Below, piece by piece: positions 21,082 to 37,098 of a stretch of 48,992 nucleotides of DNA. The stretch is taken from positions 1 through 48,992 of the forward strand of contig RECV01000171.1 of the NCBI GenBank assembly GCA_007693845.1. Direction: 5' to 3'. Under the pieces are notes generated by a model. That model did not search any database, had not been told where the DNA came from, and saw only the letters and a program-made list of their open reading frames with translations. The first letter of the stretch is position 1. Each line of letters begins with the position of its first letter. Source of the stretch: Phycisphaerales bacterium. Lineage in GTDB: Bacteria; Planctomycetota; Phycisphaerae; Phycisphaerales; SM1A02. The position numbers and the translations under genes were made by a program.

Positions 21082-21648
21082 TCAGGTATCCTCGATCTCA
21101 GCGCACTTCTTGTCGCACATCTCATCAATCTTCTTCGTGTGCTCTTTGGTCAACTCATCCACTTCCTCGTGCGCGCCCTTGCCTTCATCTTCGGAAATGT
21201 GATTCGACTTGTCTTTCACGATCTGATCGATCTTCTTGTTCGCATCCCGCCGCTCATTGCGAATGGCGATCCGCGCTTCCTCCGCCATCTTCTTGACCTG
21301 ACCCATGAGCTGCTTTCGGCGTTCTTCCGACGGGGCGGGCACATTGATGCGAATCGTGCCGCCTTCGACCATCGGGTTCAGCCCGAGGTCCGCCGTCTCG
21401 ATCGCCTTCACGATTTCGCCCTTGACGCTCGGGTCGAACGGCTTGACCAGCAGTTGCGTCGGCTCCGGGATGCTGACGGACGCCAGCTCACGCAGGTCCG
21501 TATGGTTGCCGTAGTAATCGATCTTCACATAGTCGATCAGCGCGGTGGTCGCCCGGCCGGTGCGAATGCCCCGCATCTCCCGGTCGAAGTACTCGATCGT
21601 CCTCTTCATCTGCTCGCGGCAGTCTCGAATCACGGTATCCAGCGGCAT
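21082..21648 (-). CDS. frr: Ribosome recycling factor
   Basis: 188-aa C-terminal portion of the track ORF matches RRF end-to-end (…IRTGRATTALIDYVKIDYYG…LTEERRK…AIRNERRDANKK). Start MPLDTV (rc ATG 21646-21648). Confidence 0.93.
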   Translation of the reverse strand: MPLDTVIRDCREQMKRTIEYFDREMRGIRTGRATTALIDYVKIDYYGNHTDLRELASVSIPEPTQLLVKPFDPSVKGEIVKAIETADLGLNPMVEGGTIRINVPAPSEERRKQLMGQVKKMAEEARIAIRNERRDANKKIDQIVKDKSNHISEDEGKGAHEEVDELTKEHTKKIDEMCDKKCAEIEDT

Positions 21649-21764
21649 CGTGAGAATCTCCCAAACAGTGCGGTCACAAGAAACAGGCCGCGCATGATAC
21701 ACGCTGAACCCGCCCCGCGGGGCTGTTTCGCCCGCCGAACCGCCCCCGGGCTCGGCACCGGTGC

Positions 21765-22736
21765 TCAGCCCTCCGTCAACTCCGGCCGCGGCTGCGGGTG
21801 ATTCCAGCGTTGCCAGAGACGGACCAAGTCCGGGTCGGCATCGTCGGTGAAGGAGAGGGTCAGGTGACCGGCTTCTCCGATCATCGTCACGATCAACGGG
21901 CCGGAGGTTTCCGTGCACTTGACGAGCATGACCGCGTCGTCCACGGTCCAGCGGCGCTGCTTCCGGTCCGTGACGGTTCCGAGGCCGACGACGGTTTCGC
22001 GGTGATCCATGCGGAACAGGCGCGTGGTATCGCGCACTTCGGGCAGTTGCAGCGCGATGATTGCCGCAAGGACTAGCGCCAGCCACCACGTGCCGAGCCA
22101 GAGCAGGTACACCGCAACCACGATGACAATCCCAATCGCGATCTTGAGGCGCGCTCGCGGCTTGCTGCCGCTTTCAAGAATCCCTTCCGGTTCGAGCATG
22201 TGTTCCGGCAGCGGAATACGACGAAGCGAGGGGCGGGCCTGTTCGTCGATGATGGTTCGCGGCCGCGGGATCGAGCAAGAATCGAGCGCTTCGATGAAAC
22301 TCCGCCAGGTCCACAGGCGCGGCGGGCCGAGAAGGCGAAAACGCCGCTGGCGCTCCAGTTCAAACACGACCTCAACCGCCCGGGGGTCGCCGGTAAACGG
22401 GAGCGAAGGTGGCAGCGGACTCCAGCCGGCCGGGCGTGCGGTTGACCGTTCGTCGATGCGCTTGGTGAAGCGGGCCCAACAGAGCGGAGCAAGAATGACG
22501 AAGTGGAAGATGAGGATGCCCACCCCCCCGGAGATGGCTTGAATCAAGTCACCAGAGACAAAGTAAGTAGAAGCGAAAAATGCTGCGATGAAGACAACGA
22601 TGGCGACTGGACTTTGCAGGTCTTCCCCCACATGCAAAGGCAGCCGCCCGGCCGCAATGTACGGACACTCCGAGTTGGAAGCGCGGGTCTGATCCTCCAC
22701 GCCATGCACGATAAAGCACCAGGCCGGGACGACCAA
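21765..22736 (-). CDS. Hypothetical membrane protein with C-terminal PH-like region (start uncertain)
   Basis: Multiple TM helices (…IAIGIVIVVAVYLLWLGTWWLALVLAAIIAL…). No recognisable family. Confidence 0.4.
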   Translation of the reverse strand: MVVPAWCFIVHGVEDQTRASNSECPYIAAGRLPLHVGEDLQSPVAIVVFIAAFFASTYFVSGDLIQAISGGVGILIFHFVILAPLCWARFTKRIDERSTARPAGWSPLPPSLPFTGDPRAVEVVFELERQRRFRLLGPPRLWTWRSFIEALDSCSIPRPRTIIDEQARPSLRRIPLPEHMLEPEGILESGSKPRARLKIAIGIVIVVAVYLLWLGTWWLALVLAAIIALQLPEVRDTTRLFRMDHRETVVGLGTVTDRKQRRWTVDDAVMLVKCTETSGPLIVTMIGEAGHLTLSFTDDADPDLVRLWQRWNHPQPRPELTEG

Positions 22737-23046
22737 GTCGCAGTGTCAGTGTCCTCCTGCTCGCCGCCGCCGGACGCGATCATCAAGTGCACCGGCAATG
22801 ACCACGGCAGCCGGCTTTGCTCTACCCACCTCGCCATTGCATCCGGCCTCGGCTTCGCTATCTTGCTCTCACAATGATGCCCGGCTTCTACGAATCGCTC
22901 CTCCTGATTCTCATCTTCTTCGGCCCGCTCTTGGCCGCCGCGATGATCGTGCTTCTCGTGTTTCTTGTGCTGCGATTATTGAAGAAGGAGCGGAAGGGAT
23001 GAGTTACGCGGCCGTTCTGCCGCGAGCAGGGAAGAGGCTCGGAAAG

Positions 23047-23103
23047 TGTGCTACGCCGCGAGCGGCGTGCGACCGGCGCGCATCTCGCCGCTTGCGGCGT
23101 AGC
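23047..23103. repeat. REP-like imperfect palindrome, left flank of the RAYT gene
   Basis: GCTACGCCGCGAGCGGCG (23050-23067), 18-nt loop, CGCCGCTTGCGGCGTAGC (23086-23103). 17/18 complementary. Confidence 0.55.
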
Positions 23104-23132
23104 GCGGGTTGAATCTACCATTGACCGCCGTC

Positions 23133-23783
23133 ATGGCACGGCCCATCGTCATCGCGCACCACCTGATCTGGACGGTGTACGGCTGGTGGCTGCCCAACGA
23201 TCCGCGCGGCAGCACATCACGAACGGTCGCGTCAGATCGACTCGCAGCGCTGGGTGAATTGCACTTCGGACGGAAGAAAATCCAGCCGCAATCGCGCGAT
23301 GTGCGCGCGTTTTATGAACGGGCCGCGAAGGAACTCAAGCATCCGCTCCTGGAGATTCGCGATGACGCGGTTGATCTTGTCGCGGATTCATTTGCCGAAG
23401 TGATTGCGGAGCAGAAGTACACGTGTTATGCGTGCGCGATCATGCCGGATCATGTTCACATTCTGATTCGCAAACATAAGCATCGCGCGGAAGAGATGAT
23501 TGATCTCTTGCAGAACGCTTCGCGCTGGGCGCTGATCGAGGCGGGTCTGCGGCCGTCGGATCATCCGGTGTGGACGGGCGGTGGGGGATGGACGGTTTTT
23601 CTTGATCATCCCGATGAGGTTGAGCGGACGATTCCGTACATTGAGCAGAATCCGTTGAAGATCGGTTTACCGCGGCAGGTGTGGCCGTTCGTGGCGGTGT
23701 ACGACCGGTGGCCGTTGCATGAGGGGCATAGTGAGAATTCGCCGTATGTGAAGCGGTTGCGCGCGGCGGGGCGGTATCCGTGA
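23133..23783 (+). CDS. REP-associated tyrosine transposase (IS200/IS605 TnpA-like, Y1 HuH)
   Basis: HHLIWTVYGWW…PDHVHILI (HuH) …conserved Y. Flanked on both sides by copies of GTGCTACGCCGCGAGCGGCG palindromic elements. Confidence 0.8.
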   Translation: MARPIVIAHHLIWTVYGWWLPNDPRGSTSRTVASDRLAALGELHFGRKKIQPQSRDVRAFYERAAKELKHPLLEIRDDAVDLVADSFAEVIAEQKYTCYACAIMPDHVHILIRKHKHRAEEMIDLLQNASRWALIEAGLRPSDHPVWTGGGGWTVFLDHPDEVERTIPYIEQNPLKIGLPRQVWPFVAVYDRWPLHEGHSENSPYVKRLRAAGRYP

Positions 23784-23791
23784 GATCGTGC

Positions 23792-23829
23792 GCGTGCTAC
23801 GCCGCGAGCGGCGGCCGCTTGCGGCTTAG
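23792..23829. repeat. REP-like palindrome, right flank of the RAYT gene
   Basis: GCTACGCCGCGAGCGGCG|GCCGCTTGCGGCTTAGC, near-perfect inverted repeat centred at ~23812. Confidence 0.5.
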
Positions 23830-23902
23830 CGCACGTTAGTTCCAGATTCCCTCAGTTCGTCACCAACGTTCCCCCGCCGGACAGGGCGAGGGGCAGCATT
23901 AC

Positions 23903-24130
23903 TCACGCCGCATCAAGGGCGGCGTAGACCTTACCTTGCTGCTTGAGCCATTCCACGTCGCCGCGATCGGCGCGCTGTTCAATCTCGCGCAGGAGCTCGA
24001 CCGTCTCCGGCTCGTAGCATGGCTCAGACGGATCGGCATCAGGAATCACAGCATCGACTTCCACGACGACAACATACTTGTCCGTGCGGACCATGCGCGT
24101 GCGTCGAACTCGTTTGCCGGGAATACTCAT
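23903..24130 (-). CDS. Small hypothetical protein immediately downstream of the DUF4258-like gene (possible antitoxin partner)
   Basis: 75-aa ORF separated by 5 nt from the upstream gene on the same strand. Confidence 0.4.
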   Translation of the reverse strand: MSIPGKRVRRTRMVRTDKYVVVVEVDAVIPDADPSEPCYEPETVELLREIEQRADRGDVEWLKQQGKVYAALDAA

Positions 24131-24135
24131 GATCG

Positions 24136-24420
24136 CTACTCGTCCAAGAAGTGTACGGTTACCAGCTTCGCATAGTCAATCTCACGCATGTACGACCACA
24201 CGACAAGGACTTCGGTTCCATCGGCCAGTAGCTGCGTGACCTCAACGGACGGATTCGGCTGCGTGCGCGGGCGTTCACGCTGAAGGGCGGCGTTTTGAAT
24301 GCCGTCAACGATCTGCCATTCGAGGATTCGTCGCTCGTCCAGGCGCTCCACCGCATGATGGCCGACGACATAGCGGTTGGCCTCCACGAGTTGCTTGATC
24401 TTCTGAAAGAGTTGGCCCAC
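24136..24420 (-). CDS. DUF4258-family (toxin-like) protein
   Basis: YVVGHHAVERLDERRI matches the characteristic HAxERMxERGI signature of the DUF4258 family. 94 aa. Confidence 0.55.
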   Translation of the reverse strand: MGQLFQKIKQLVEANRYVVGHHAVERLDERRILEWQIVDGIQNAALQRERPRTQPNPSVEVTQLLADGTEVLVVWSYMREIDYAKLVTVHFLDE

Positions 24421-24430
24421 GCGTAGCCCC

Positions 24431-25189
24431 TCAATTGGTCACCAACGTGCCCACACGCTCGCCCGTCACGACCCTGCGGATGTTGCCCTTCTTCTTGAAA
24501 TCGAACACGATCACCGGCAGGTTGCGTTCCATGCACATTGACAGGGCGGTCAGGTCCATCACGCCGAGCTGTTTTTCGATCGCTACGGCGAAGGTGAGCT
24601 GATCGTACCGTGTCGCGCTGGCATCCTTCCGCGGGTCGGCGGAATAGACGCCATCGACCTTGGTCGCTTTGAGGACGATGTCCGCGTTGAGCTCCGCCCC
24701 GCGCAGTGCAGCGCAGGTGTCGGTCGTGAAGAACGGGTTGCCGGTGCCGGCCGCGAGAATGAGCACGCGGCCTTTCTCAAAATGTCGCAGGGCGCGGGCG
24801 CGGATGAAAGGTTCAGCCACGGCGGGAATGTCGATCGCGCTCATGAGGCGGGCGGGCTGGCCGAGATTCTCGATCGCTTCGCGCAGGGCGACGCCGTTGA
24901 TGACGGTGCCGAGCATGCCCATGTAATCGGCGTTGGATTGCGCGATGGTGCCGGTCTCCGCGAGCTGGCCGCCGCGAATGATGTTGCCCCCGCCGACGAC
25001 GATGGCGATCTGCGGGCGGCTGGACGCGTCGGGATTATCCGCGTCGCCGCTTCGCACGGCATCGACGATTTCCTGCGCGATGAGGCCGAGCTCATCGGGA
25101 TCGATACCGAATTCGCCGGGCTTGCTGAAGCTTTCGCCGCTGATTTTGAGAATGATTCGACGGTACTGCTGGTGTGGGGCGTCCGGCAT
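24431..25189 (-). CDS. pyrH: UMP kinase
   Basis: RIILKISGESF…IVVGGGNIIRG…GTGNPFFTTDT motifs. Start MPDAPHQQ (rc ATG 25187-25189). Confidence 0.93.
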   Translation of the reverse strand: MPDAPHQQYRRIILKISGESFSKPGEFGIDPDELGLIAQEIVDAVRSGDADNPDASSRPQIAIVVGGGNIIRGGQLAETGTIAQSNADYMGMLGTVINGVALREAIENLGQPARLMSAIDIPAVAEPFIRARALRHFEKGRVLILAAGTGNPFFTTDTCAALRGAELNADIVLKATKVDGVYSADPRKDASATRYDQLTFAVAIEKQLGVMDLTALSMCMERNLPVIVFDFKKKGNIRRVVTGERVGTLVTN

Positions 25190-25364
25190 GATTGAGCGAT
25201 TCCTCCGATGACTGGCGTCATTGGACTGTCCGTTGCGCGATCGGTCAAGGGCGTTCGCACGCAAATCGGTGGTTCATGGTCCGGTCCCGCCCGAACGATC
25301 ATGCTCCCGGCGTATACTGCCAGCGCGAGTGCGGAACTTCCCAGCCGCGGAGACGTATCAGTTC

Positions 25365-26360
25365 ATGGTGTCACCGACCCCGCCGACAACTTCGCCGAAG
25401 CTGGACGAGCTGCGCAAACAGGTGCAGTTATTGCGGCAGACGGTCCATCGCTTGACCGTGGAGCGGGAGATGCGGTCGCGCAAACGCCGACGCCGCCTGC
25501 TGGCGACCGGCCTCGCGGTCTCGGTGTTTTTTCACCTCGCACTGCTGGTGTATTTCGCGATGATGTCCCGCGCGGGTGATGGTCCGGGCGGGCCTGCTGC
25601 GGATGAGTATCAATTTGCGCTGGTTTTCGATGAGACGCTGACCACGGCGGATACGAGCGGGCTGGACGAACTCGATCTCGATCCCAGCGAGGAGTTGCTC
25701 TCGGAATTGACGGACGCCAGCGACGATGCGTTGGCCGACGCCCCGGCAGCGGCAGATCTCTCCGCCGAGGGCGTGGGCGCGATCGAAACGCTGGGCGGTG
25801 CCGGCGATGGCAGCGCGGGCGGCACGCTCGCCGGTGGGGCGGGGACGAGCTACTTCGGCATTGAAGCGGAAGGCAGCCGGTTCCTCTACATCGTTGATCG
25901 CTCGGGCTCGATGATGTTCGCGCAGCGGATGGAGATCGCCATGCGCGAGCTGCGCGAGTCGGTTGAATCTCTGCCCGACTACACGTCGTTCCAGGTGATC
26001 TTCTTTTCATCGAATCTGCTCGAGCCGGACTTCCAGCGCGGCTGGGCGCGGGCGACGGCCGCGAACATTCGGCGTTACCTCAGTTGGTTCGATCGTGTCG
26101 ATCCGGGTGGCGGAACGATCCCCCGGCCGGCGTTTCTGCTGGCGTTTGAGATGCGGCCGAGGCCGGATGTGATCTTCTTCATGACCGACGGCATTATTCC
26201 CGATCTCAGCGCGGAGGAAATCAACGACATCAATCAGCGCGGCGATCGCGTGGTGATTCACACGATTGCCTTCGGCGATCAGGGCAGCGAAGAACTGCTG
26301 CGGCGGATCGCTCGCGATTCCGGTGGGCAGTACCGGTACATTCCCGATGGAGGACGCTGA
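25365..26360 (+). CDS. Membrane-anchored von Willebrand factor A (vWA) domain protein with acidic/Gly-rich linker
   Basis: TM helix LLATGLAVSVFFHLALLVYFAMM. Low-complexity D/E/A/G region. MIDAS motif DRSGSM. ATG at 25365. Confidence 0.75.
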   Translation: MVSPTPPTTSPKLDELRKQVQLLRQTVHRLTVEREMRSRKRRRRLLATGLAVSVFFHLALLVYFAMMSRAGDGPGGPAADEYQFALVFDETLTTADTSGLDELDLDPSEELLSELTDASDDALADAPAAADLSAEGVGAIETLGGAGDGSAGGTLAGGAGTSYFGIEAEGSRFLYIVDRSGSMMFAQRMEIAMRELRESVESLPDYTSFQVIFFSSNLLEPDFQRGWARATAANIRRYLSWFDRVDPGGGTIPRPAFLLAFEMRPRPDVIFFMTDGIIPDLSAEEINDINQRGDRVVIHTIAFGDQGSEELLRRIARDSGGQYRYIPDGGR

Positions 26361-26361
26361 G

Positions 26362-27549
26362 ATGGCGGCAACCGGCCGGATCATCCTCGCATCGGTGTCG
26401 GCATTCATGTTACTCATTTTGCTGATTTTCGCATCAGTCGTCATCGCGGGAGCATCGATTGCTCACGCTGAATCCAGCGCGATCGGATTGAAAGTTGAAC
26501 CGGATCGAATCGAGCGCCGGTTCGGCCTGCCGCCGCAGACGGGCCGGATCACGCTGATGGATGATGAGGGACTCGTGATCCGGGAAGCCGATGGTGCGAG
26601 CACGACGGTGAGGTGGGATCGAGTGCGTGAGGTTCACCAGGAGCGGCCTGATCCTCGGCTTGAGTCGTGGCTGGCGCAGGGGGAACGAATGTGGCGGGCG
26701 CGAATTCGTCTGGAACGCGGCGACGTGGTGATGGCCGAGCCGCTACTCCGGGAACTCTTTGAACAAACACGCGGCCAGTCCCATGCGGGGGCGCGCCTGG
26801 TGGCGGAAGGCCTGTTGCGCTGCCGACTGGTGCGAGGCGAGCAGGCCGGCGCGGTGCTGCCCGCGCTGGAGGTGATCCGGCTGCATCGGGCGGGGATCGA
26901 GTCCGATGCGTATCGCGCCCTGCCCGCCGTTCTGGATGAGAAGCACGAACTGGTGCCCGCGCTGCCGCCGGTCTGGCAAGCGGCGGCGGGTGATCTCGCG
27001 CTGGTCAGCGAACTGGAGCAGTACGATGCGCAGGGCGATGCGGTGGTCGCGCAACTGGCGTTACGGTACCGTCAGATCGCAGCGCGGCAGGCGGGGCATG
27101 TCATTGATGCGCCGCCCGCACGTTCGAGTGCAGCAGACTCGGCGCAGCATCCGGGGCTGCAACTCGTGCAGTTGCTCGTCGATGCACACGATGGCGATTC
27201 GACACGTCGCGAAGAATCGAGACGGGTCATGAAACAGCAGATGGAGCAAGCGGACGGCTGGGTCGAAGCGTGGCTTCGTTTTCATCTGGGCAGCAGTCTG
27301 CTTGAGGAGGAAGGCGTCGGCCGGAAGCAGCGGGGATTGGTCGCCCTGATCCATCTGCCCGCGCGTTTTTCGGGCCTGCAGCCGTATCTGGCCGGCCTCG
27401 CATTGGATCGCGCCCGCGAAGGCGCGGAGAAACTGAACATGAATGAACTGGCAGACCGGTTGCGGGTTGAACTCGAACGAAACTGGTCGAACCATCCGAT
27501 TCGTCGAACGACGGAGCGGGGACGAACGCGCATCGGGAGCGCACATTGA
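26362..27549 (+). CDS. Hypothetical exported/anchored protein (operon member)
   Basis: N-terminal hydrophobic segment IILASVSAFMLLILLIFASVVIAGASIAHA. Starts 2 nt after the vWA stop. Its stop overlaps the exbB start (ATGA). Confidence 0.6.
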   Translation: MAATGRIILASVSAFMLLILLIFASVVIAGASIAHAESSAIGLKVEPDRIERRFGLPPQTGRITLMDDEGLVIREADGASTTVRWDRVREVHQERPDPRLESWLAQGERMWRARIRLERGDVVMAEPLLRELFEQTRGQSHAGARLVAEGLLRCRLVRGEQAGAVLPALEVIRLHRAGIESDAYRALPAVLDEKHELVPALPPVWQAAAGDLALVSELEQYDAQGDAVVAQLALRYRQIAARQAGHVIDAPPARSSAADSAQHPGLQLVQLLVDAHDGDSTRREESRRVMKQQMEQADGWVEAWLRFHLGSSLLEEEGVGRKQRGLVALIHLPARFSGLQPYLAGLALDRAREGAEKLNMNELADRLRVELERNWSNHPIRRTTERGRTRIGSAH

Positions 27550-28343
27550 AGGAATCGACCATGGACGCGGCAGCCGAAGCCGGCCGGCGCTTTGACTTGA
27601 CACTTCAGGAAGGACCATTGATGGGGATGATCGAAGCAATCCCAATGAACCTGATCTTGGCGGAGACCCGCGAGGCGGGCATGACCTGGCTGGAAACGAT
27701 TCAGCGCGGCGGGCCGGTCGGATATCTCATCCTGGTGATGAGCGTGGCGGCTTTGGCGTTGATCATCATGCACTTCGTCCAGATCAGGCGGGTCGCCTTG
27801 TTGCCGCCGGATCAGTTGACCGCGCTTGATGATCTGCTGCGCCGCGGCGATGTCGGGGGCGCGCTCGAGTTCTGCCTCAACCCCGAGCATGATTCCTACC
27901 TCGTGCGCATTCTGTCCTCGGGGCTGACGCGGTTTCAGAAGTCGGCGTTCGGCGCGTTTGAAATCAAGAACGCGATCGAGGAAGCGGGTGAAGATCAGAC
28001 CTCGCGGCTGTACCGTTCCACGGACGCGATCGGCGTGATCGGCAACATCGCGCCGCTGCTGGGTTTGCTCGGGACGGTCGTCGGCATGGTCGGCGCGTTC
28101 GAGGCGATCGGCCAGACCGGCGCGGCCCGGCACGAAGAACTGGCCGGCAGCATCAGTCTCGCGCTGATCACCACGCTCATGGGGCTCACCCTCGCCATTC
28201 CGTGTATCGCGCTGCACACGTTCTTCCGCAACCGAATTGACACGTTCGCCTCCGAAGCCGCGATGGAGATCGAACGGCTGACGCTGCATCTTGAATCAAG
28301 CGGTTCCGGTCAGCCCGCCGCACCGGGACAGGGAGCGCGTTGA
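27546..28343 (+). CDS. exbB: MotA/TolQ/ExbB-family proton channel
   Basis: Three TM helices with the conserved …GLLGTVVGMVGAFEAIG…LALITTLMGLTLAIPCI… core. Confidence 0.85.
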   Translation: MKESTMDAAAEAGRRFDLTLQEGPLMGMIEAIPMNLILAETREAGMTWLETIQRGGPVGYLILVMSVAALALIIMHFVQIRRVALLPPDQLTALDDLLRRGDVGGALEFCLNPEHDSYLVRILSSGLTRFQKSAFGAFEIKNAIEEAGEDQTSRLYRSTDAIGVIGNIAPLLGLLGTVVGMVGAFEAIGQTGAARHEELAGSISLALITTLMGLTLAIPCIALHTFFRNRIDTFASEAAMEIERLTLHLESSGSGQPAAPGQGAR

Positions 28344-28346
28344 CGC

Positions 28347-28766
28347 ATGGCGTGGCGCCGGAAACAACGCGATCGGATCTTCCCCGTCGACATCACGCCG
28401 ATGATCGATGTCGTGTTTCTGCTGATCATCTTTTTTATGGTGACCGCTCAGTTTGCCAAGCTCAGCCGTGCGGAGCTTGACCTGCCGCGCGAACCGGGCG
28501 AACGCAGTGAACTCGCCGAGCCCGACACCATCATCATCAACCTCACGCGGGACGGCACGTTGATCGTGAACGACCGCGAGGTCGAGCGTGACGCTCTCGC
28601 GTCGATGGTGCAAGAGGTTCTCGAGCAGACGACGGACGATCCGGCCATGGCGCACGTTCTCCTGCGAGTCGACCGGGAAACCGATTCAGCTCGTCTCAAC
28701 GAACTGGTGGTGCAACTGCAGGCGATCGGCGTTGGTAGGGTGCGCGTCGCCACCGAAGTTCCATAA
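28347..28766 (+). CDS. exbD: ExbD/TolR-family biopolymer transport protein
   Basis: ITPMIDVVFLLIIFFMVTAQF TM/consensus. 139 aa. Confidence 0.85.
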   Translation: MAWRRKQRDRIFPVDITPMIDVVFLLIIFFMVTAQFAKLSRAELDLPREPGERSELAEPDTIIINLTRDGTLIVNDREVERDALASMVQEVLEQTTDDPAMAHVLLRVDRETDSARLNELVVQLQAIGVGRVRVATEVP

Positions 28767-28796
28767 TCCTCTGTTCAGGGAATTGATCCAACCGGC

Positions 28797-29222
28797 ATGT
28801 GGACACGCGAGCGAAAAGACGATCGACGACGGGAACGCATCACGCTCAATCTGGCGAGCATGATCGACGTCACGTTTCTGCTGCTGATCTATTTTCTGGT
28901 CACCGCGGTCCTGGCGGAGCCGGAGGATCGACTCACGCCGGATTTACAGGTGCAGACCGGCGAAGCCGCCGGACGTGAGGCGGATCTCGAACCGCAGGTG
29001 CTGGAGGTGCTCATCGCGGATGGCCAGCCGATCTATCGTCTGGGCAGCATCGTCATGGCTTCCCGCGCGGAGTTGCGGGAGCGGCTGGACGCGTTGCCGC
29101 GTTCGGCGGGTGTCTTTATTCGGGTGGGGGACGGCGTGCCGGTGGGCTTTGCCGTGACCGCCATTCAGGTGGCGCGAGATCTGGACTTTGAACAGGTGAC
29201 GTATGTCCCGCATTCGCCGTAA
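28797..29222 (+). CDS. exbD: ExbD/TolR-family protein (second paralog)
   Basis: NLASMIDVTFLLLIYFLVTAVL TM/consensus. 141 aa. Confidence 0.8.
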   Translation: MWTRERKDDRRRERITLNLASMIDVTFLLLIYFLVTAVLAEPEDRLTPDLQVQTGEAAGREADLEPQVLEVLIADGQPIYRLGSIVMASRAELRERLDALPRSAGVFIRVGDGVPVGFAVTAIQVARDLDFEQVTYVPHSP

Positions 29223-31872
29223 AACACGAACCATCCTGTTGAGCGGCGCCGTGCTCGTGTGGTGTTGTTTCGTTCATCATGCGGCGTGGGGGGACGATCT
29301 GCACGATGATCAGGCGGTGACCGCGTTTCTGGAGCGGCTGGATTCACCCGAACTGCTGGTGGTGCATCTTGAGGAGAAACTGGAGCGCACGCCGCGGAAT
29401 GAACGGGGGGAATTGGTCATTCGGATTGCCGAGTTGTACGTTCAACTGCTTCAGCGCGAACAGGATGCGGCGCAGCGAAAAGTGTATGAAGCGCAAAGTC
29501 GGCAGTTGCTCGATGAAGCGCCGCCGGAGGTGGCGCGCCAACTGGAGCTGTCTCTGCTGCAGGCCCGATACCGTGAGGCAGAGTCGATCGCTGAGCGGTA
29601 CCGTCTCCGGCTGATTGACTTCGATGAGACGACGGAAGCGATCGAATTCCTGCGCGACATTGCGCCGCGGCTGTATCAGTTGAGTGAATCGCTCCGCAGA
29701 GACATCGAGCGCATGCAGCGTGAAGCGGATCGGGCCCGCGGCCGCGCTGCCGCCGCGTTGAACGAGCAGTTGCGGCGCGATCGTCAACTTCAGCGGCAGT
29801 CGGCGTTTCTGTTCGGCTGGTCCGCGTACTACCTCGCCTGGCTCGACCCGGAGTCGGCATCACTTGAGCAGTTGAACCAGGCGGAACGCGTCTTCGCCCG
29901 ACTACTTCGCACCGCAACGGACCATCCCCGGCCGGAAGATGTCTCCGTCGATCTTCGCTCCGATGAAGCAACCGCGCGATCGATCCTCGGCATGGCGCTC
30001 TGCAAATCCGTGAATCCGGAGTACACCGGGGTCGCGACCGCGCTCGAGTGGATTCGACTGCTCGAACACGAACGAACCGAATCTTCCGTGCGTGAGCAGG
30101 CGCCGGGTTGGAAGCTGGTCATTTTTCTGGAAGGCGGGGCGTACCGCGAAGCCCGGATGTTGCTTCGTGACCGGCTGGACGATGATGAACAGACGCGGAT
30201 TCCCACCGCATGGCTCCGGCTCGCGGCCATCGCAGCGCTTGAATCCGGGCAGAACGCCGAAGACGAGGAAAGTCTGCAGCAACGCGAACGCACCGCGCTC
30301 GTCGATACGGTCGTTGAGCAGTTTGCAGCACGGGGTGAGTTGAACCAGGTCCTCGAACTCGCCGAGCGGTTCGGGCTGGATACCATCTCCGGCAGCGGCT
30401 TTGCGCAGCGTTATCTCCGCGGCGTGTTGCTCTTTCGGCTCGCTCAGGAGGAGCAGGAATCCGAAACGGTGTCCGATCAGGAGCAGCGAGACCGCTACGA
30501 AGCGATCGCCGCGGAACTGCAATCGGCGCTGCAAGTGGTCGAGCCGGAGGAGTCAGCCGAACTGGTGGCATCGGTTCACCGACTGCTCGGATGGTCGTTG
30601 TACGAACTTGAACGTTGGCGCGATGCGGTGAATCACTTCCTCGAAGCGGAGAAGACGCTGCCCCGTGAGCAGGCCGCAGAATCGCTCCGCATGGCGATCA
30701 TTGCCCTTGATCGATTGCTTCGTACCGAATCAGACGCCGAACTGACATTGCTGCGTGACGAACTGTCCGAACGATATCTTGATCGCTATCCCGAGACGAC
30801 ATTCGCCAGCCGGCTTCTGCTGCACCGGACCGGTGGCCGGGAGTCGCTTACGGAAGAGGAACGCGCGGCTCTGCGTGACATCGAGACGGATGATCCCTCG
30901 TATCTCCGAGCGCGGCTGCGATTGATTTCGGATCAATTCCGCGCCTTTCGGCGCGCGACAGCAGATCAGAAAGCATCGCACGCGGATCAGTTCCTTGATG
31001 CATCCGGCGAACTTGTGCAGTTCGTTCTGGCTCAACAGGAGGGTGACCTCCCGGATGAGCCGCTGCTGCAACTCGCGCGTCAAATGCTGGAGGTCGCGCT
31101 GTCCGATCAAGGTGCGGCTCCGGATGTGGCATATCTTGCGTTTGAGTTGATTGATCGACGCGAACTGACGCCCTCCGACCCACTTGTGACGGAAGAGTTG
31201 ACCTGTCGGCGCGTGCAGTACGACCTCCTGCGCGGCCGCTTCAACGATGCGGTGGAAGAAGCCGAGCGCATGTGGAGCGAGACCCCCGGCTCGGTCTGGA
31301 CGCGACAAGCCGTCCGCGCTGTGTTTCGCGATGCCTACCGCCGCTGGGAGCGTGCTGGCAGTCGCGAGCGGGAGCAGTACGGCCGGGTCGCGTTGTCATT
31401 CGGCGGGCGCGTGCTGCGGGAGTTTGAAGATGACGCCGAAGCGCTGGCCCGAAGCGCGCCGCACAGTGTGGCCTCGATCGTGGCGGAACTGTCATACTCC
31501 TTCTGGCGCGTTCACGGCGAGGAGCGCAACGGGCGGGCGGCTCAGTATCTCTACGAACGGCTGCTGAGCTTCCACCCGCGCGTGGAGACGTACCTCGAAC
31601 GTGCCGCCACGCTGGCGGAACACTTTGATGAGTTGGAGTCTGCGCTCTCGCACTGGCGACGGCTTGCGGTGGGCCGGGAGACCGGCACGGCCCCGTGGTA
31701 CGAAGCGCGATTCCATGTCATTTCAATCCTGATGCAGGTTGATCCCGAGCGCGCTGCCGAAGCGCTGCAACAGTACGATGCGATTTATGCCGCGAACGCC
31801 CCCGAGCCGTGGGCCTCGCGTTTCGATGAACTTCCCCGCGAGACGCCTGCTGCGAGGGAGTCTGATTCATGA
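29203..31872 (+). CDS. Large secreted all-alpha (TPR-like/coiled-coil) protein, 889 aa, hypothetical
   Basis: Signal peptide (ILLSGAVLVWCCFVHHAAWG). R/E/L/A-rich helical composition. Overlaps the upstream and downstream genes by a few nt. Confidence 0.7.
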   Translation: MSRIRRKTRTILLSGAVLVWCCFVHHAAWGDDLHDDQAVTAFLERLDSPELLVVHLEEKLERTPRNERGELVIRIAELYVQLLQREQDAAQRKVYEAQSRQLLDEAPPEVARQLELSLLQARYREAESIAERYRLRLIDFDETTEAIEFLRDIAPRLYQLSESLRRDIERMQREADRARGRAAAALNEQLRRDRQLQRQSAFLFGWSAYYLAWLDPESASLEQLNQAERVFARLLRTATDHPRPEDVSVDLRSDEATARSILGMALCKSVNPEYTGVATALEWIRLLEHERTESSVREQAPGWKLVIFLEGGAYREARMLLRDRLDDDEQTRIPTAWLRLAAIAALESGQNAEDEESLQQRERTALVDTVVEQFAARGELNQVLELAERFGLDTISGSGFAQRYLRGVLLFRLAQEEQESETVSDQEQRDRYEAIAAELQSALQVVEPEESAELVASVHRLLGWSLYELERWRDAVNHFLEAEKTLPREQAAESLRMAIIALDRLLRTESDAELTLLRDELSERYLDRYPETTFASRLLLHRTGGRESLTEEERAALRDIETDDPSYLRARLRLISDQFRAFRRATADQKASHADQFLDASGELVQFVLAQQEGDLPDEPLLQLARQMLEVALSDQGAAPDVAYLAFELIDRRELTPSDPLVTEELTCRRVQYDLLRGRFNDAVEEAERMWSETPGSVWTRQAVRAVFRDAYRRWERAGSREREQYGRVALSFGGRVLREFEDDAEALARSAPHSVASIVAELSYSFWRVHGEERNGRAAQYLYERLLSFHPRVETYLERAATLAEHFDELESALSHWRRLAVGRETGTAPWYEARFHVISILMQVDPERAAEALQQYDAIYAANAPEPWASRFDELPRETPAARESDS

Positions 31873-34787
31873 ATCGCGAGCGGCTGAACTCCATTCTCGG
31901 CCATCCGACCGAGTCGGCGGCCCACGAACTGCTGGGTCTGGCCGAAATGCCGAAGGATCCCCGCGAGGTGAATCGCCGGCTCGATGCCAGACTCGCGCAT
32001 ATCGAGGCGCATCCGGATTCCGGCAGCCGGGAGGCAGAGATTGCCCGCCGGATCGTTCGCGTCGCGGCCCAACGATTGCATGAACAACTGACTCACAAGA
32101 AGATACCCGATCCGACCCGCCGCACGCCTCAGCGTTTCTCGCTCACCGAGTTTGACCGAAGTGTGCTCGGCGTGCTCGTGGGCAGTGGGGGATGGAACGC
32201 GGCGAGCCGCGCGCGTCTCGTCGCGCTGGCCAACTACCACGGCGTCGGACCGTACGGCCTCATGCGCGTGATTTGCGGGCTGAACGATCATGCGCGAAGG
32301 CACGGGCCCCGCATCACCATCTCGGATATCACCGGCCGAGCCGAAACGGCGGCGACGATCCGGCAGCGCGAGGTCGAGGAAGTTCGCACCAATGAACTTA
32401 TCAACCGTTATGCGCCGGAGTTCCGGGAAGGTACTACTTGGGCGACGGTCAAGCTTTCGATTCTGTTCGGCCTGCTCACCCTGCTGATTGCCAGCGCGAT
32501 CATCGTCCCGCTCTGGCATCATCAGCGCACGATCATGACGACGCGCGCCACTCCGCCGCCCACAGCGACCGCACCCGATCCCGATGCCGATCGTGATTGG
32601 GACCGCGATTCATCCGAGCACGAGCGCACGCGATCGCGAGAACCGGCGATGGAGCGTTGGCCGACCGTAACGCCGCCCATTCGCGCCCCGCGATGGGATG
32701 AAGTCGATCGACGAGCGGCTGAGCTTCGTGATGAGTTCAGCGCACTGACCGGGCGGATGCTCACGTCGACCGAGCCGGATGATGAGGTCTTCGAGCAATG
32801 GACCGTAGCGGTGGATCGTTTCAGCCGAGTTTGGCTGGCTTTGGATGACCGCGAGCTGGGCCGCGTTGAAGATGACTTTCTTCAACCGCTCTATGCCTCG
32901 GCCGGTCGCGCCGAACGGCACGACCGCCTGCTGGACGCTCTCGGGCCGGTCTCGCGCGAACCGGCGGCAGCGTCGGAACTGATCTCGGGAAGTTGGCGCG
33001 TCGGCATGTTGTTTGAGTTGACGCAGGATCATCGACTGCCGCAGCGCACCCGTCATCGCGCGTTGAATCTGCTGAATCAGTCTTTCGCATCGCCCATCGA
33101 TCAGGAAGCCGCCTGGCGGGATCGGGAGGCGGCCATCGGCGACTGGCTGGAACGTGTGCTGTCATCGATGGCGCGTGATGTTGACACGATCCGATCCGAT
33201 GAACTGGCGGGGTTGTGGGGCGCGTGGATCGAAACGCTCGGCCGGGTTCGATTCGGCGAATCACGGCAGCGCCAACTGCTCGATGCCGTGGAATCATTGT
33301 TGCGCGAAGTTTCCGATCCCCGTGAACCGGCGAGCCGCCCCGCGATCGTGGCGCATCTATTGCGGGAACTCGATTTCGAAACCAGCGCAACCGTTCGGCA
33401 GCGCGTAGGTGACTGGTTTCGCCCGGGCAGACTGAGTTCGAGACAACTCTGGGTGCTCACGTCACTGCTGGCCCTGGACCGGACCACGCCGTGGTTGGAT
33501 GAGCAGATGATCATCATGCCGGAAGCTGATGATCGTCTGCGCGGGCGCGCAGCGCAGGATCTCGAAGCCCACTGGCCGCGGCGGACGGTTTCAGCCGATG
33601 ACCTGGAGCGAGGACACCGCATCGCCGTCGATGTCGAGTCAGGTCAGCGCTGGCGCGATCTTGAAGAGTTGTTGCTCAATCGCCGGCGGGAGATCAGCGA
33701 CCCGCTGTCGGCACTGCGACAATTGACGCGACGGGTCTGGCTGAACGAGGCCGCACTTCATCTGGCCGTCGGCGATCGCGGACAAGCCCGCGAAGTCATG
33801 AACGCCATTGAAAGCATGGACGGCCGCTCCCGTGAAGATAATCGCCACGGCCTGACCAACCCGCGCGGCCGTGGCGGATCGGGTTCGATTCGTCCCGGTC
33901 AGCCGGTCGGGCCCGACGGCGTGTGGGCCGAGGCGTACGTATCGGCCGGGCGGAACGTTGACGCCCGGCTTCAGCAGATCAACCAGTTGGATCGACGAGG
34001 CGGCGGTGACCTCGGCCGGCGCGATGCCGCCGTGCTGGTCCGCGAGGCGTACCGCGGTTCGCCGCGTGAAGTCAGTGATCGAGCGCAGCGTCTCGTGGAA
34101 TCTCGCTTCGCTTCCGGACCGGTGGTGATCCTTGAACTGCTCGATCAGTTGCCCGATGCGCCGCGCCACAGCCGAACGATCAGCTTTATCGAGCGCATCA
34201 CGAACGCCACTATTGATGATCAGGGCGACGATCGAGAGCAAGCCGAAGCTCGCGCGCGGCTGGCGTTGATCGAGCGACTGCTGAAACTCCAGCAGCGCGG
34301 CGAGGATGCACGCGATGAGTATGCCGAACTCGTTCGCGAGTCGTTCGAAAGGCAGTTGCTGGCCATTCGACCCGAAGAACGATCAGTGAGCGACGAACCG
34401 GTTCTGGAAACCGCACAGCGCCTTCGCCAGGTTTGGTGGTCCGTTGTAAACGAAGCCGCGGCTTCAGCGGACAACCGTGAAGAGAGCTTGGCGAAGCTGG
34501 ACAACATTCAGCAGGAACACGCTCTGCGCAGTCGACTGGCCCGCGGCTCAATGCAGAAAACGCTCGCCGAGCGAATCGGCGAGCTGGATCTGCTCGCTGA
34601 GCTGATCACCCTCGAGCAGCCGCCGCGTGAAGCGACAGTGCAACGACTGCTCGAACGCACGCTGATCGACCGGCGCGAAGCGACCGACGTGCTCGAGCAG
34701 CTTCTCATCACCGAAGCCGCGCTGTCACGACTCTGGCGCATGCGGCTGGATCTTCCTGAGCGAGCTACCGGAGAGGGGTCATCATGA
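31869..34787 (+). CDS. Large membrane-anchored all-alpha protein, 972 aa, hypothetical
   Basis: Single internal TM (LSILFGLLTLLIASAIIVPLW) after a ~190-aa N-terminal region. Long helical remainder. ATGA overlaps at both ends. Confidence 0.7.
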   Translation: MNRERLNSILGHPTESAAHELLGLAEMPKDPREVNRRLDARLAHIEAHPDSGSREAEIARRIVRVAAQRLHEQLTHKKIPDPTRRTPQRFSLTEFDRSVLGVLVGSGGWNAASRARLVALANYHGVGPYGLMRVICGLNDHARRHGPRITISDITGRAETAATIRQREVEEVRTNELINRYAPEFREGTTWATVKLSILFGLLTLLIASAIIVPLWHHQRTIMTTRATPPPTATAPDPDADRDWDRDSSEHERTRSREPAMERWPTVTPPIRAPRWDEVDRRAAELRDEFSALTGRMLTSTEPDDEVFEQWTVAVDRFSRVWLALDDRELGRVEDDFLQPLYASAGRAERHDRLLDALGPVSREPAAASELISGSWRVGMLFELTQDHRLPQRTRHRALNLLNQSFASPIDQEAAWRDREAAIGDWLERVLSSMARDVDTIRSDELAGLWGAWIETLGRVRFGESRQRQLLDAVESLLREVSDPREPASRPAIVAHLLRELDFETSATVRQRVGDWFRPGRLSSRQLWVLTSLLALDRTTPWLDEQMIIMPEADDRLRGRAAQDLEAHWPRRTVSADDLERGHRIAVDVESGQRWRDLEELLLNRRREISDPLSALRQLTRRVWLNEAALHLAVGDRGQAREVMNAIESMDGRSREDNRHGLTNPRGRGGSGSIRPGQPVGPDGVWAEAYVSAGRNVDARLQQINQLDRRGGGDLGRRDAAVLVREAYRGSPREVSDRAQRLVESRFASGPVVILELLDQLPDAPRHSRTISFIERITNATIDDQGDDREQAEARARLALIERLLKLQQRGEDARDEYAELVRESFERQLLAIRPEERSVSDEPVLETAQRLRQVWWSVVNEAAASADNREESLAKLDNIQQEHALRSRLARGSMQKTLAERIGELDLLAELITLEQPPREATVQRLLERTLIDRREATDVLEQLLITEAALSRLWRMRLDLPERATGEGSS

Positions 34788-35593
34788 CCGGCACCGCACG
34801 AATGATCCTGATCCTGTCAATCGTCGTGAGCATGACGACTTTCATCGCGCTGGCCGAGGATGAGAACACCATCGACTGGACCGATCGGCTGGAAGCGCTG
34901 ACGCCCGATGATCCGCTGGCGTACTTTGAGCTGGCGGAAGAAATCGCCGACGCCGCGACAAGTGAGTCCGATCAGAACACGGCCCGGCATCTGTTCGCGC
35001 TGGCCGGGGTGCTCACGCCGGAGCGTTTCGGCGCGAGTGCGGCATTGGCCCTGGCGGACCTTGAAGCATCGCCGACGCGCGCGGAGCAGTACCGGGGGCT
35101 GGCCACCCTGCTCGCTCCCCCCGAGTCGGTCTTCTCCACCTCACTGATCGGAGCCACGCTGCGCGATGCGGATGCCACAACGGATCCGGTTCGAGCCCGC
35201 GCGCTGGTTGAAGCGTTCAGCTTGTATCGCCGCGGACACGGCCGTCGCGCTCTCCGCACGCTGCAACGCGCGGATGCGGTGGAAACGCTGCATACATTGA
35301 ATCCGATCTTTCCCGGCGGAACCCATCGATTCGTGCAAACGGCTGAAGGGCTTCATCCCGGTGCCCGGCCGACGGTGAGCGATGACGACCTTACCCGCCT
35401 GCTGCAGATCGAGTTTGCGCTGCTTGCGCCCAATCAGGTGCCCTGGTCGGTTGACCTGATCTGGTCCCGTCGTGCGCCGCTGCTGGAATTCAATCCCGGC
35501 CGGCTGGAGGAAACATTCGGCGTGGATCCGGACCGAACGATTTACCGGGATGGTCGCTGGGTCAGCCCGCCCGCCCGTTCCGGCGGCGGCTGA
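34784..35593 (+). CDS. Hypothetical membrane-anchored protein, last gene of the operon
   Basis: N-terminal TM MILILSIVVSMTTFIALA. Coupled start (ATGA). Confidence 0.6.
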   Translation: MTGTARMILILSIVVSMTTFIALAEDENTIDWTDRLEALTPDDPLAYFELAEEIADAATSESDQNTARHLFALAGVLTPERFGASAALALADLEASPTRAEQYRGLATLLAPPESVFSTSLIGATLRDADATTDPVRARALVEAFSLYRRGHGRRALRTLQRADAVETLHTLNPIFPGGTHRFVQTAEGLHPGARPTVSDDDLTRLLQIEFALLAPNQVPWSVDLIWSRRAPLLEFNPGRLEETFGVDPDRTIYRDGRWVSPPARSGGG

Positions 35594-36035
35594 GGCGTTC
35601 CTGCAGCAGCCCGCCGAGTTGGTCGGTCATCCCCGGAAACTGAAGCGACCACAGCCCCCAGTTCGTGTCGAAGGGATCCTGGGCCAGTTCAAGGCCTTCC
35701 AGGACAGTCTTCTTGAGTTGGTCGGTGGACAACTGATCGACCTCGCCGTCATCGAATGGAATGGCCAGTTGCAGATCGTCGGGGCGGGGGATGAGAATCG
35801 CCAGCGGCGGAGCGGAGGGCTCGGTGCGGTACTCGATCGTCCACCGCCAGGCATCGCCGCGCCAGACACAGACCTCATGGATCCCGTCGAGATCCTGCAT
35901 AATCTGCCGCATGCTGTCGAATATCTCCGCGCTGCCGTTCGGCAGATCGGCCCGTAAATCCTTGACCGCAGGCTCGTTGAAGCGGTCTCCCCAGACAGGA
36001 CGTGCGTAGGGGTTCTTTTTCCGGTTCCGGCTCAT
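35562..36035 (-). CDS. Hypothetical protein
   Basis: Start MSRNRKKNPYARPVWG (rc ATG 36033-36035). Convergent with the operon end. Confidence 0.45.
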   Translation of the reverse strand: MSRNRKKNPYARPVWGDRFNEPAVKDLRADLPNGSAEIFDSMRQIMQDLDGIHEVCVWRGDAWRWTIEYRTEPSAPPLAILIPRPDDLQLAIPFDDGEVDQLSTDQLKKTVLEGLELAQDPFDTNWGLWSLQFPGMTDQLGGLLQERLSRRRNGRAG

Positions 36036-36530
36036 CTGGACTCCCAGGCTACTCAACAATATCCGGCATGCGTCTGACGCAACGCATACCGATCGGAGCG
36101 GCATCAAGACCGCTCAGTCAGGGATGGCCGGCTCAAGCATGGAGACGGCTGAATATTTTCAGTGTAGGCATCGCTCGAACGAGTGTCACGCCCAGTGCCA
36201 TTCGTTTGTGGTTTTTCAGGAAAAGCTCGCGGAGGCATCACGAGCCGGATTGAATGAATTTTTCGTAAATCCATTCTCGCAAGAGTGTTACGTCTATTGT
36301 TGATAGTCGCAACATGCCGGCCGAGCTCAGCGCAGGTTGTTCTCACGATGCATATTCTTGTCTGCGATGCCGATTCGTTCGAAATCTGACCGGCACCGGC
36401 AACCCGGCTGGAATCGACCGGGGCGGCGGTTCGGGGTACGATCACCCTTGACGAATCCGTTTTCAATTCGGGAACGGAGTCGCCTGCCGACGCGGCGCGA
36501 ATGTGCGGTTCTCAGAAGACGCCTGGCCAG

Positions 36531-36576: not shown

Positions 36577-37098
36577 ATGAACGAAACCACTACCTTTCAA
36601 GCGACTCACCCCTCCGCTTCGACCATTGATCTCTCCGACGCCTCGATTCTGCTGGTGGATGACAATGTCCAGAACCTCGAGTTGATGCAGGCGTACCTGG
36701 AGACGCTCCCCGCGCGGATCCGGACGGCGGAGGATGGCCTCGAAGCCGCCGCCCTCATCGATGAAGAGATGCCCGACCTCATTCTGCTTGATGTGATGAT
36801 GCCGCGCATGAGCGGCTTCGAACTCTGCCAGAAACTCAAGTCGAATCCCAATACCCGCGACATCGTGATCATCATGGTCACCGCGCTCAATGAGGTCGGC
36901 GACTTTGAGCGGGCCGTGGAATGCGGCACCAACGACTTCATCACGAAACCCGTCAATAAGCTTGAGCTCGTCACCCGCGTGAAATCCCTGCTCGAACTCG
37001 CGCTGGTCAAGCGGCGCTACGACCAGATGCTCGGACTCACCCAGCGAAGGGAGCTTGACGATCGGGATCGCGTCAATGCCGGGGAGAAGCTCGAGTAA
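36577..37098 (+). CDS. Stand-alone response regulator receiver (CheY-like) protein
   Basis: ILLVDDNVQNLELM…DLILLDVMMPRMSGFE…MVTAL receiver motifs. No output domain. Confidence 0.85.
   Translation: MNETTTFQATHPSASTIDLSDASILLVDDNVQNLELMQAYLETLPARIRTAEDGLEAAALIDEEMPDLILLDVMMPRMSGFELCQKLKSNPNTRDIVIIMVTALNEVGDFERAVECGTNDFITKPVNKLELVTRVKSLLELALVKRRYDQMLGLTQRRELDDRDRVNAGEKLE

Follow-up and report, generated by a model that had tools for sequence, protein, structure and literature searches.

An eight-gene operon of Phycisphaerae that probably encodes a TonB/TolA-like force-transduction machine with a vWA head

Organization of the operon

Contig RECV01000171.1, a 48,992-bp piece of a metagenome-assembled genome (MAG) labelled Phycisphaerales bacterium, was analysed over its whole length and is called the window below. 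It carries an operon of eight plus-strand open reading frames (ORFs), g1 to g8, at positions 25365-35593. These genes encode an inner-membrane protein with a vWA (von Willebrand factor A) domain (g1), an ExbB/ExbD-type motor (g3, g4 and g5), three secreted proteins (g2, g6 and g8) and a large bitopic protein (g7). The operon probably specifies a TonB/TolA-like machine that transduces the proton-motive force (PMF), with a vWA domain where TonB has its C-terminal domain. Antisense ORFs of 150-335 aa are plentiful in the window, whose DNA is 62% GC, so ORF length alone is no proof of a gene. The eight ORFs are regarded as genes and not as chance ORFs because their orthologs occur in the same order in many other genomes, which bears out the eight co-directional ORFs proposed in a first-pass annotation of this DNA.

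The genes are tightly packed. As read from the sequence, g1 and g2 are separated by a 1-nt gap, g2 and g3 overlap in a TTGA at 27546, g3 and g4 lie 3 nt apart, and g4 and g5 lie 30 nt apart. The g5 and g6 genes overlap by 20 nt in the window copy, and the g6/g7 and g7/g8 junctions are ATGA overlaps at 31869 and 34784. Median stop-to-start distances from g1 through g8 are -1, -4, +2, +6, -17, -4 and -4 nt (35-51 orthologous loci), and the g5/g6 overlap is constant at 17 nt across orthologous loci. Tight coupling is a conserved property of these genes, as expected from the earlier proposal of one coupled operon. The ATGA junctions that it listed at 31869 and 34784 are present, but the one at 27546 is TTGA, and the g4/g5 gap is 30 nt rather than 2-4 nt. 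A promoter and terminator scan was uninformative, with 1 promoter-like site versus 2.2 expected.

Distribution and synteny

The operon was sought in one genome per GTDB species by using the pattern of the g6 family. The resulting 64 loci all belong to uncultured Phycisphaerales or Phycisphaerae MAGs. When the eight window proteins were compared with these loci by tblastn, the order was pyrH (minus strand) followed by g1 to g8 wherever the contig was long enough, and the same order appears in the Pfam tables of two long contigs. About 12 of the 64 operon-bearing genomes are labelled "uncultured Isosphaeraceae" (class Planctomycetia); because they share the pyrH-linked locus of Phycisphaerales type, these automatic assignments are questionable.

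With g1 as the query, an exhaustive HMMER search recovers 3841 representatives at E<=1e-10, of which 212 remain at E<=1e-30, and 110 of the 139 top full-length matches are less than 45% identical to any ortholog from the 64 genomes. A metagenome scan seeded with 48 distant g1 sequences, in which contigs were read with custom hidden Markov models of g1 to g8, yielded 80 contigs. All eight genes are present in order on 31 of these, and the remainder are truncated but collinear. Combined with the 64 species-level genomes, the operon is thus known from more than 140 loci in one lineage, so the eight-gene order that had been suggested as a check on the annotation does recur. The pyrH gene is divergent and upstream of g1 in essentially all contigs with enough upstream DNA. 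Because gene order, the pyrH neighbor and the stop-to-start spacing are conserved, the operon is a core locus of a broad clade of Phycisphaerae, fixed in place and inherited vertically.

This distribution bears on whether the operon might be a Zorya-like anti-phage defense system with a MotA/ExbB-type channel at its core. In Zorya, large helical partners accompany the MotAB-like stators. However, the operon has a fixed, vertically inherited position in the core genome and not a patchy, island-like distribution. Moreover, Pfam reveals no nuclease or helicase domains in the eight proteins, and no PADLOC model matches any of them. A defense role is almost certainly not the explanation.

Motor proteins

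The g3 gene (27546..28343, plus strand) encodes an ExbB/TolQ-type stator channel with three transmembrane (TM) helices (Pfam MotA_ExbB, 2.5e-28). Its start is either TTG at 27546, which overlaps the g2 stop codon, or ATG at 27561, which has GAAGGAA ahead of it. The LLGTV sequence of TM2 and TT..LAIP of TM3 are conserved and align by hhalign with TM2 and TM3 of E. coli TolQ. The best NCBIfam model is TolQ (TIGR02796), with 65 bits versus a cut-off of 221.

The g4 (28347..28766, plus strand, 139 aa) and g5 (28797..29222, plus strand, 141 aa) genes encode ExbD/TolR paralogs (Pfam ExbD, 4e-24 and 2.2e-12, respectively). The best NCBIfam model for g4 is TolR (TIGR02801), with 58.5 bits versus a cut-off of 127.3, so that both g3 and g4 fall far below the equivalog cut-offs of TolQ and TolR. 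The TM helix of g4 contains a protonatable Asp (MIDVVF) that is conserved in 52 orthologs, and the TM Asp of g5 is also conserved. The two proteins align only over the TM helix, where 13 of 25 residues are identical; their periplasmic domains are unrelated in sequence, and g5 forms an orthologous group separate from g4 in all loci. This restriction of their likeness to the helix implies a heterodimer.

The g1 protein as a putative TonB analogue

The g1 gene (25365..26360, plus strand) encodes an inner-membrane-tethered protein of 331 aa, the predicted vWA force transducer. An alternative start, GTG at 25329 on the plus strand, is the one used in the database and gives 343 aa. The protein consists of a basic cytoplasmic N-terminus, a TM helix (aa 45-67), a D-box-like motif (aa 82-89), an acidic, Gly-rich linker that extends to about aa 162, and a vWA domain with a metal-ion-dependent adhesion site (MIDAS; aa 174-328).

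The TM helix of g1 includes Ser53-x3-His57 (codons at 25521..25535, plus strand), which corresponds to the Ser/His pair of the SHLS motor-docking motif of TonB and TolA. This motif and its contacts with ExbB and TolQ have been defined by cryo-EM (PMC12215075). In the window copy the spacing is S53-x3-H57-x6-F64-x3-S68. Among aligned orthologs from a set of 123, the Ser is found in 121 of 121 and the His in 120 of 121; both are invariant in 48 distant representatives, and S-x3-H occurs in 130 of the 140 full-length representatives from the exhaustive search. The +11 position of the motif is hydrophobic (Ala, Leu or Phe). The Ser at +15 is not conserved, and the same is true of TonB (PMC12215075).

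About 15 residues past the TM helix, behind a Gly/Pro-rich segment, lies the sequence YQFALVFD (aa 82-89; 25608..25631, plus strand), which stands out by its column conservation. Across the 123 orthologs, the pattern is V/I (95%), E/D, F/L (97%), Ala (89%), two hydrophobic positions (96% and 97%), T/S and E/D. This is close to the pattern of the TonB D-box, which the ExbD dimer captures as a beta-strand (PMC10907165), and aa 82-89 are therefore a candidate for a strand of this kind. The linker that follows has a median length of 100 aa (interquartile range 97-103) in the same orthologs and comprises 17% Asp+Glu, 2% Lys+Arg, 17% Gly and 6% Pro.

The C-terminal domain of g1 matches VWA_3 in Pfam (4.6e-11), and the family profile matches the solved vWA domains of ITIH4 (1.7e-12) and 4fx5 (3e-10). 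The MIDAS sequence is DRSGSM, and residues D178, S180, S182, T251 and D275 are conserved. Pfam and the linker composition thus agree with the first-pass domain reading of a vWA protein with MIDAS and an acidic linker, one ExbB-type channel and two ExbD paralogs. That annotation saw no TonB partner in the operon. It is correct that none of the eight proteins matches TonB_C (PF03544) at E<=1, but g1 carries both a docking helix and a D-box-like motif of its own, and so appears to be an analogue of TonB.

The same features raise the question of whether the locus is simply the ordinary Ton uptake system of the lineage, in which case the vWA protein would be a divergent TonB and the helical proteins would be neighbors unrelated to the system. 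Loci of the form exbB-exbD-exbD-tonB, with two ExbD genes, occur in other phyla. As in Ton systems, the channel is of ExbB type and the plugs are of ExbD type with an Asp in the TM helix, each recognized by Pfam, and g1 shares with TonB the Ser-x3-His anchor, the D-box-like strand and the layout of helix, linker and head. However, the head is vWA/MIDAS and not the TonB C-terminal domain, and the known beta-strand addition to a Ton box is not open to it. The g1 linker is acidic and Gly-rich, with only 6% Pro, whereas that of TonB is polyproline. We scanned 38 proteins of the 49-kb window, namely the eight operon proteins and 30 of the window's largest ORFs, and no TonB_C, TolA, TolB, Pal/OmpA or TonB-dependent receptor was detected among them, in agreement with the absences noted in the first pass and with its proposed check for a standard exbB-exbD-exbD-tonB locus with receptors nearby. 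Also, the operon has two distinct ExbD proteins and four extra dedicated partners. In more than 100 loci, g2, g6, g7 and g8 are inherited together with the motor and translationally coupled to it, so they are not casual neighbors. An ordinary Ton system is very unlikely on these grounds.

Loci with a displaced motor

In a few loci the motor genes are found elsewhere. In L001/L047 and L045, the exbB-exbD-exbD triplet is on the far side of pyrH, and the 10-kb neighborhood has no such triplet in L042, L063, L065-67, L131, L133 and L145; in both groups g1-g2-g6-g7-g8 remain contiguous. Relocation of the triplet as a block suggests that it behaves as a movable cassette. In L001 (3079-6100), and also in L045 and L047, this block lies between frr and pyrH and adjoins a dockerin-like gene.

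It is possible to explain such loci by two independent modules that share a location: a stator whose partner is encoded elsewhere, and a PMF-independent complex of vWA, tetratricopeptide repeat (TPR) and solenoid proteins. Bat operons, for example, combine TM-anchored vWA proteins and TPR proteins. However, g1 retains its Ser-x3-His pair and D-box-like motif in exactly those loci in which the motor genes are elsewhere, and the Ser and His residues have no known role besides motor docking (PMC12215075). In addition, no MoxR ATPase or DUF58 gene accompanies the operon, unlike in Bat operons, and the vast majority of loci have the motor genes inside the operon, joined by stop and start codons that overlap. 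Separate modules therefore seem a quite unlikely arrangement, and a single machine in which g1 works with the motor is preferred.

Secreted partners

The g2 (26362..27549, plus strand, 395 aa), g6 (29203..31872, plus strand, 889 aa; EA377_08385) and g8 (34784..35593, plus strand, 269 aa) genes encode proteins with cleavable Sec signal peptides and no lipobox. These properties indicate that the three proteins are soluble in the periplasm and not anchored. The first-pass annotation had taken g2 to be signal-anchored and had distributed signal peptides and anchors differently among the large proteins: g6 and g8 have cleavable peptides, and g7 has an internal TM helix.

The g2 gene always directly follows g1. 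Its product has a small N-terminal beta domain with a weak bacterial PH-like signal, followed by a TPR-like helical part. The window copy has no Pfam match, and matches in 43 orthologs are sub-threshold (TPR_14 in 12 and bPH_6 in 5, with a best value of 1.9e-4). The g6 protein is an all-helical TPR superhelix in its AlphaFold model, and its sequence signal is weak (5e-6 to a designed TPR in a PDB profile search). The g8 gene, which is the last of the operon, always follows g7 with a 4-nt overlap. Its product has no recognizable fold and no match in Pfam, NCBIfam or PDB searches, and its invariant residues are Y47, E52, R149 and W221. Thus, the earlier description of the large proteins as almost entirely helical fits the models of g6 and g7, but g8 remains without a recognizable fold by sequence. 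No TonB or TolA chain in PDB is matched by the g2 and g8 profiles at E<=10, and the large proteins show no TonB/TolA-like C-terminal fold, those of g6 and g7 being all-helical in the models. Paralogy among g2, g6, g7 and g8 was considered and rejected, as hhalign probabilities are below 2%.

The g7 protein

The g7 gene (31869..34787, plus strand) encodes a bitopic protein of 972 aa. Its cytoplasmic part comprises a J-domain-like head (aa 1-76) and a helical domain that contains GGWN (aa about 90-155). After this 190-aa cytoplasmic region come an internal TM helix (about aa 190-220), a Pro-rich disordered linker (226-276) and an ARM/HEAT-like alpha-solenoid (277-960). The Pro-rich stretch has 10 Pro in about 59 aa past the TM helix, although no ORF had been thought to contain a Pro-rich spacer. 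The protein has no Pfam, NCBIfam or PDB sequence match, and a second profile search added only two sequences to the alignment. The AlphaFold2 model is all-helical, with a pLDDT (predicted local distance difference test) of 75 and a confident region at aa 1-76. According to Foldseek, the solenoid of about 680 aa resembles only generic ARM/HEAT solenoids.

The J-domain-like head (31869..32096, plus strand) was overlooked in the first domain reading. Its sequence reads LLGL, helix, HPD, helix, with the HPD at aa 48-50 between two long helices. An alignment of 30 orthologs matches, in register on both motifs, a profile built from eight J domains (hhalign score 31.0, P 2.2e-5); 200 column shuffles gave a mean score of 8.0 and a maximum of 15.9. 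Two J domains are among the sub-threshold PDB profile matches of g7. However, Pfam DnaJ does not match g7, and a single-sequence comparison with J domains gives a probability of 0.9%. The His-Pro is near-invariant: among 76 orthologs, 12 have HPD (as in the window copy), 10 have HPE, 38 have another HPx and 16 have none. Because just 12 of the 76 retain the Asp, stimulation of Hsp70 is doubtful for most members, and the head is best described as a putative J-like fold.

In its order of helix II, HP(D) loop and helix III, and in being cytoplasmic and membrane-anchored, this head resembles those of membrane-anchored J proteins such as DjlA of E. coli. It differs from J-domain proteins in lying below Pfam DnaJ detection, in the rarity of the HPD Asp and in its fusion to a 680-aa periplasmic solenoid. 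We know of no J protein with such a fusion. The GGWN domain (32136-32333, plus strand) is also cytoplasmic and lies between the head and the TM helix. It contains G[GR]WN in 63 of the 76 orthologs, and neither Pfam nor the PDB sequences offer a match.

The bitopic g7, together with g6 and the vWA protein, invites comparison with the Agl-Glt gliding machinery of Myxococcus, which had been proposed as the nearest relative in architecture. Perhaps the operon encodes a surface-motility or adhesion machine in which a heterodimeric stator drives the TPR and bitopic proteins and the vWA protein is an adhesin module. One TolQ-like and two different TolR-like genes recall AglR, AglQ and AglS, where a TolQ-like pentamer (here predicted) surrounds a heterodimeric TolR-like pair. 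The large periplasmic TPR protein is like GltD/E, and g7, bitopic in the inner membrane with its N-terminal domain in the cytoplasm, is like GltG/GltJ. The system of Myxococcus also includes a vWA protein, CglB, which is essential (PMC11761067), and gliding has been raised for the class of transducers discussed below (PMC12204202).

This likeness is confined to the architecture and extends to the heterodimeric pair, the TPR protein and the bitopic protein. No operon protein has a domain like the TonB C-terminal domain, including g7, whose periplasmic part is an all-alpha solenoid instead of GltG/GltJ-like domains. The cytoplasmic head of g7 is J-like, whereas those of GltG and GltJ are FHA or ZnR-GYF. 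The vWA domain of g1 is tethered to the inner membrane by the SHLS helix and is not surface-exposed, in contrast to the outer-membrane adhesin CglB. Outer-membrane barrels of the GltA/B/H/K type and lipoproteins are not encoded: the eight proteins have no outer-membrane-barrel match in Pfam, g6 and g7 are all-helical, and g2, g6 and g8 have no lipobox. The resemblance to Glt proteins is one of generic folds, with no sequence homology established. Finally, the operon is a single-copy core locus beside pyrH-frr in all genomes, and this fixed place points to a core function and not to accessory motility. A gliding or adhesion machine is thus unlikely, and a PMF transduction machine with g1 in the role of TonB accounts better for these features.

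Relation to a proposed class of vWA transducers

Periplasmic force transducers of vWA type were proposed in silico in 2025 (Mol Biol Evol), in a study that was seeded on Tichowtungia aerotolerans (PMC12204202). They comprise an inner-membrane-tethered SHLS helix, a disordered region with a motor box, a domain II about 100 residues long and a vWA domain at the C-terminus, and they are found in Proteobacteria, Planctomycetes, Verrucomicrobia, Bacteroidetes and Rhodothermaeota. In bacteria of the Planctomycetes-Verrucomicrobia-Chlamydiae (PVC) group, including Planctomycetes, SHLS-vWA transducers adjoin tolQ, two tolR genes and a TPR gene. In AlphaFold 3 models from the same study, the transducer helix sits on the motor rim and binds it by way of the His. 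The class is described there as having no known function and no reported phenotypes, with gliding as a possibility (PMC12204202). No follow-up work on this class was found in the literature.

By its architecture and gene set, the operon is predicted to belong to this class, a match for which the Tichowtungia proteins were compared by description only. Shared features are the SHLS helix with its key His, the motor-box motif, a domain II of about 100 aa and the vWA head of g1, along with the linked genes (one tolQ-like, two heterologous tolR-like and one TPR), a set that is conserved in the loci studied here. In contrast, the vWA gene is first in the operon and the TPR gene follows the motor, whereas the published vWA genes lie downstream of TPR-tolQ-tolR-tolR. 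Also, the operon has one transducer, whereas Tichowtungia has two (supplement of PMC12204202), and the invariant g2, g7 and g8 genes are unmentioned in that paper. What is new here is the eight-gene form of Phycisphaerae, with its vWA-first order, four dedicated partners (g2, g6, g7 and g8) and J-like head. Accordingly, the first-pass proposal of an uncharacterized PMF-powered envelope machine is retained as regards the PMF and the vWA protein as a force receiver, but the class had already been described.

Genes around the operon

Other large window ORFs with a Pfam match are purA, ddl, mnmA, dnaX, rpoN, frr, pyrH and dinB, as well as a NosD-like beta-helix protein and a CheY-like receiver. 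These are housekeeping or unrelated genes. The pyrH gene lies at 24431-25264 and frr at 21085-21639, both on the minus strand. These two genes adjoin in related genomes (for example, L003 4494-5967) and are about 2.8 kb apart here (21640-24430). The interval contains a fragment of an IS200-like Y1 transposase (23109-23783; Y1_Tnp, 3.2e-4), and it looks as if there was an insertion into the frr-pyrH pair in the window. A NosD/beta-helix protein of 590 aa (19265-21037, minus strand) adjoins frr. A related NosD/Beta_helix/PA14 protein is found at the same position in L001, which suggests a wider synteny of the region.

Downstream of the operon lies a convergent ORF of 181 aa (35562-36107, minus strand), whose overlap with the 3' end of g8 is 32 nt. 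Pfam gives no match for it, but it is conserved directly downstream of g8 in 25 related loci (41-46% identity in those listed), so it could be a ninth, oppositely oriented neighbor of the system. In 23 related loci (65-79% identity in those listed), a stand-alone CheY-like receiver is conserved at a distance of 1-2 kb downstream of the operon; the window copy lies at 36577-37098 (plus strand; Response_reg, 1.1e-28). The window also contains a bacterial small signal recognition particle RNA (14485-14581, plus strand, 45.3 bits), directly upstream of dnaX, and a tRNA-Arg(CCT) (46460-46533, minus strand). Both are ordinary housekeeping RNA genes.

Proposed mechanism and role

The operon probably encodes a machine in which a g3 pentamer would surround a g4/g5 heterodimer, and proton flow would turn or cycle this motor. 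The g1 protein would dock on the motor rim via Ser53 and His57 and would be pulled through its D-box-like strand. PMF-driven motion could then be carried along the linker of about 100 aa to the MIDAS head, which may grip a carboxylate of a partner, either one of the helical proteins of the operon or an envelope component encoded elsewhere. The helical proteins would serve as a periplasmic scaffold on which the force acts, and g7 would couple the assembly to the cytoplasm. This predicted mechanism is well supported.

Several points weigh against it. Support for the whole class is computational, the published work included, and the contacts of g1 with g3 and with g4/g5 are deduced from motifs. 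In E. coli ExbB and TolQ, a Ser-x3-Trp pair of TM1 contacts TonB and TolA. TM1 of g3 does not have this pair; hhalign left TM1 unaligned, and no counterpart was located there, so the docking geometry of g1 may differ. Conserved residues of this helix are S61, A64 and H71 (aa 61-71, 27741-27773), and His71, where TM1 ends, may correspond to the Ser/His pair of g1. The motor and the g1-g2-g6-g7-g8 module are separable, given that exbB-exbD-exbD is displaced or absent nearby in about 10 loci while the other five genes are kept together. Pfam finds no outer-membrane or peptidoglycan-binding component among the eight operon proteins, and the absence of TonB and TolA covers just the 38 proteins scanned.

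Core envelope maintenance of a Tol-like kind is the likeliest role, ahead of nutrient import or gliding, and this assignment is the weakest step of the interpretation. It is suggested because the operon occurs once, passes down vertically and keeps its place beside pyrH-frr, in a lineage that reportedly has no Pal (Planctomycetes; supplement of PMC12204202), and a housekeeping role rests only on synteny and distribution. The operon resembles Tol-Pal (TolQ-TolR-TolA-TolB-Pal-CpoB) in that TolQ and TolR are the best NCBIfam models of g3 and g4, and in its single-copy, core-genome character, and it differs in having no TolA domain III, TolB propeller or Pal. A more specific idea is that the operon is the Phycisphaerae replacement for Tol-Pal. 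In this case, a PMF-driven vWA/MIDAS tether would pull envelope partners via the TPR/solenoid scaffold, g7 would provide a J-like link to the cytoplasm, and the machine would be needed for outer-membrane integrity or for constriction in the FtsZ-independent binary fission of Phycisphaerae. This idea is speculative, and we put only low odds on it.

If true, such a replacement would add a third functional branch to the Ton/Tol family of motors, one with a link from cytoplasm to periplasm that is absent from Ton and Tol. To our knowledge, Ton and Tol were for a long time the only known ways for ExbB/TolQ-type motors to reach across the periplasm, and it was only in 2025 that vWA/MIDAS was put forward as a third head group. 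The locus now gives this class an invariant parts list of eight coupled genes, with their topologies and two good structural models. Candidates for force-receiving partners are the three secreted proteins, one of them modeled as a TPR superhelix, and the membrane-spanning solenoid protein. As to the lineage, Planctomycetes reportedly lack Pal, and FtsZ is reportedly absent from some PVC bacteria. The parts list, the J-like module and the lineage context make the function of the vWA transducers directly testable.

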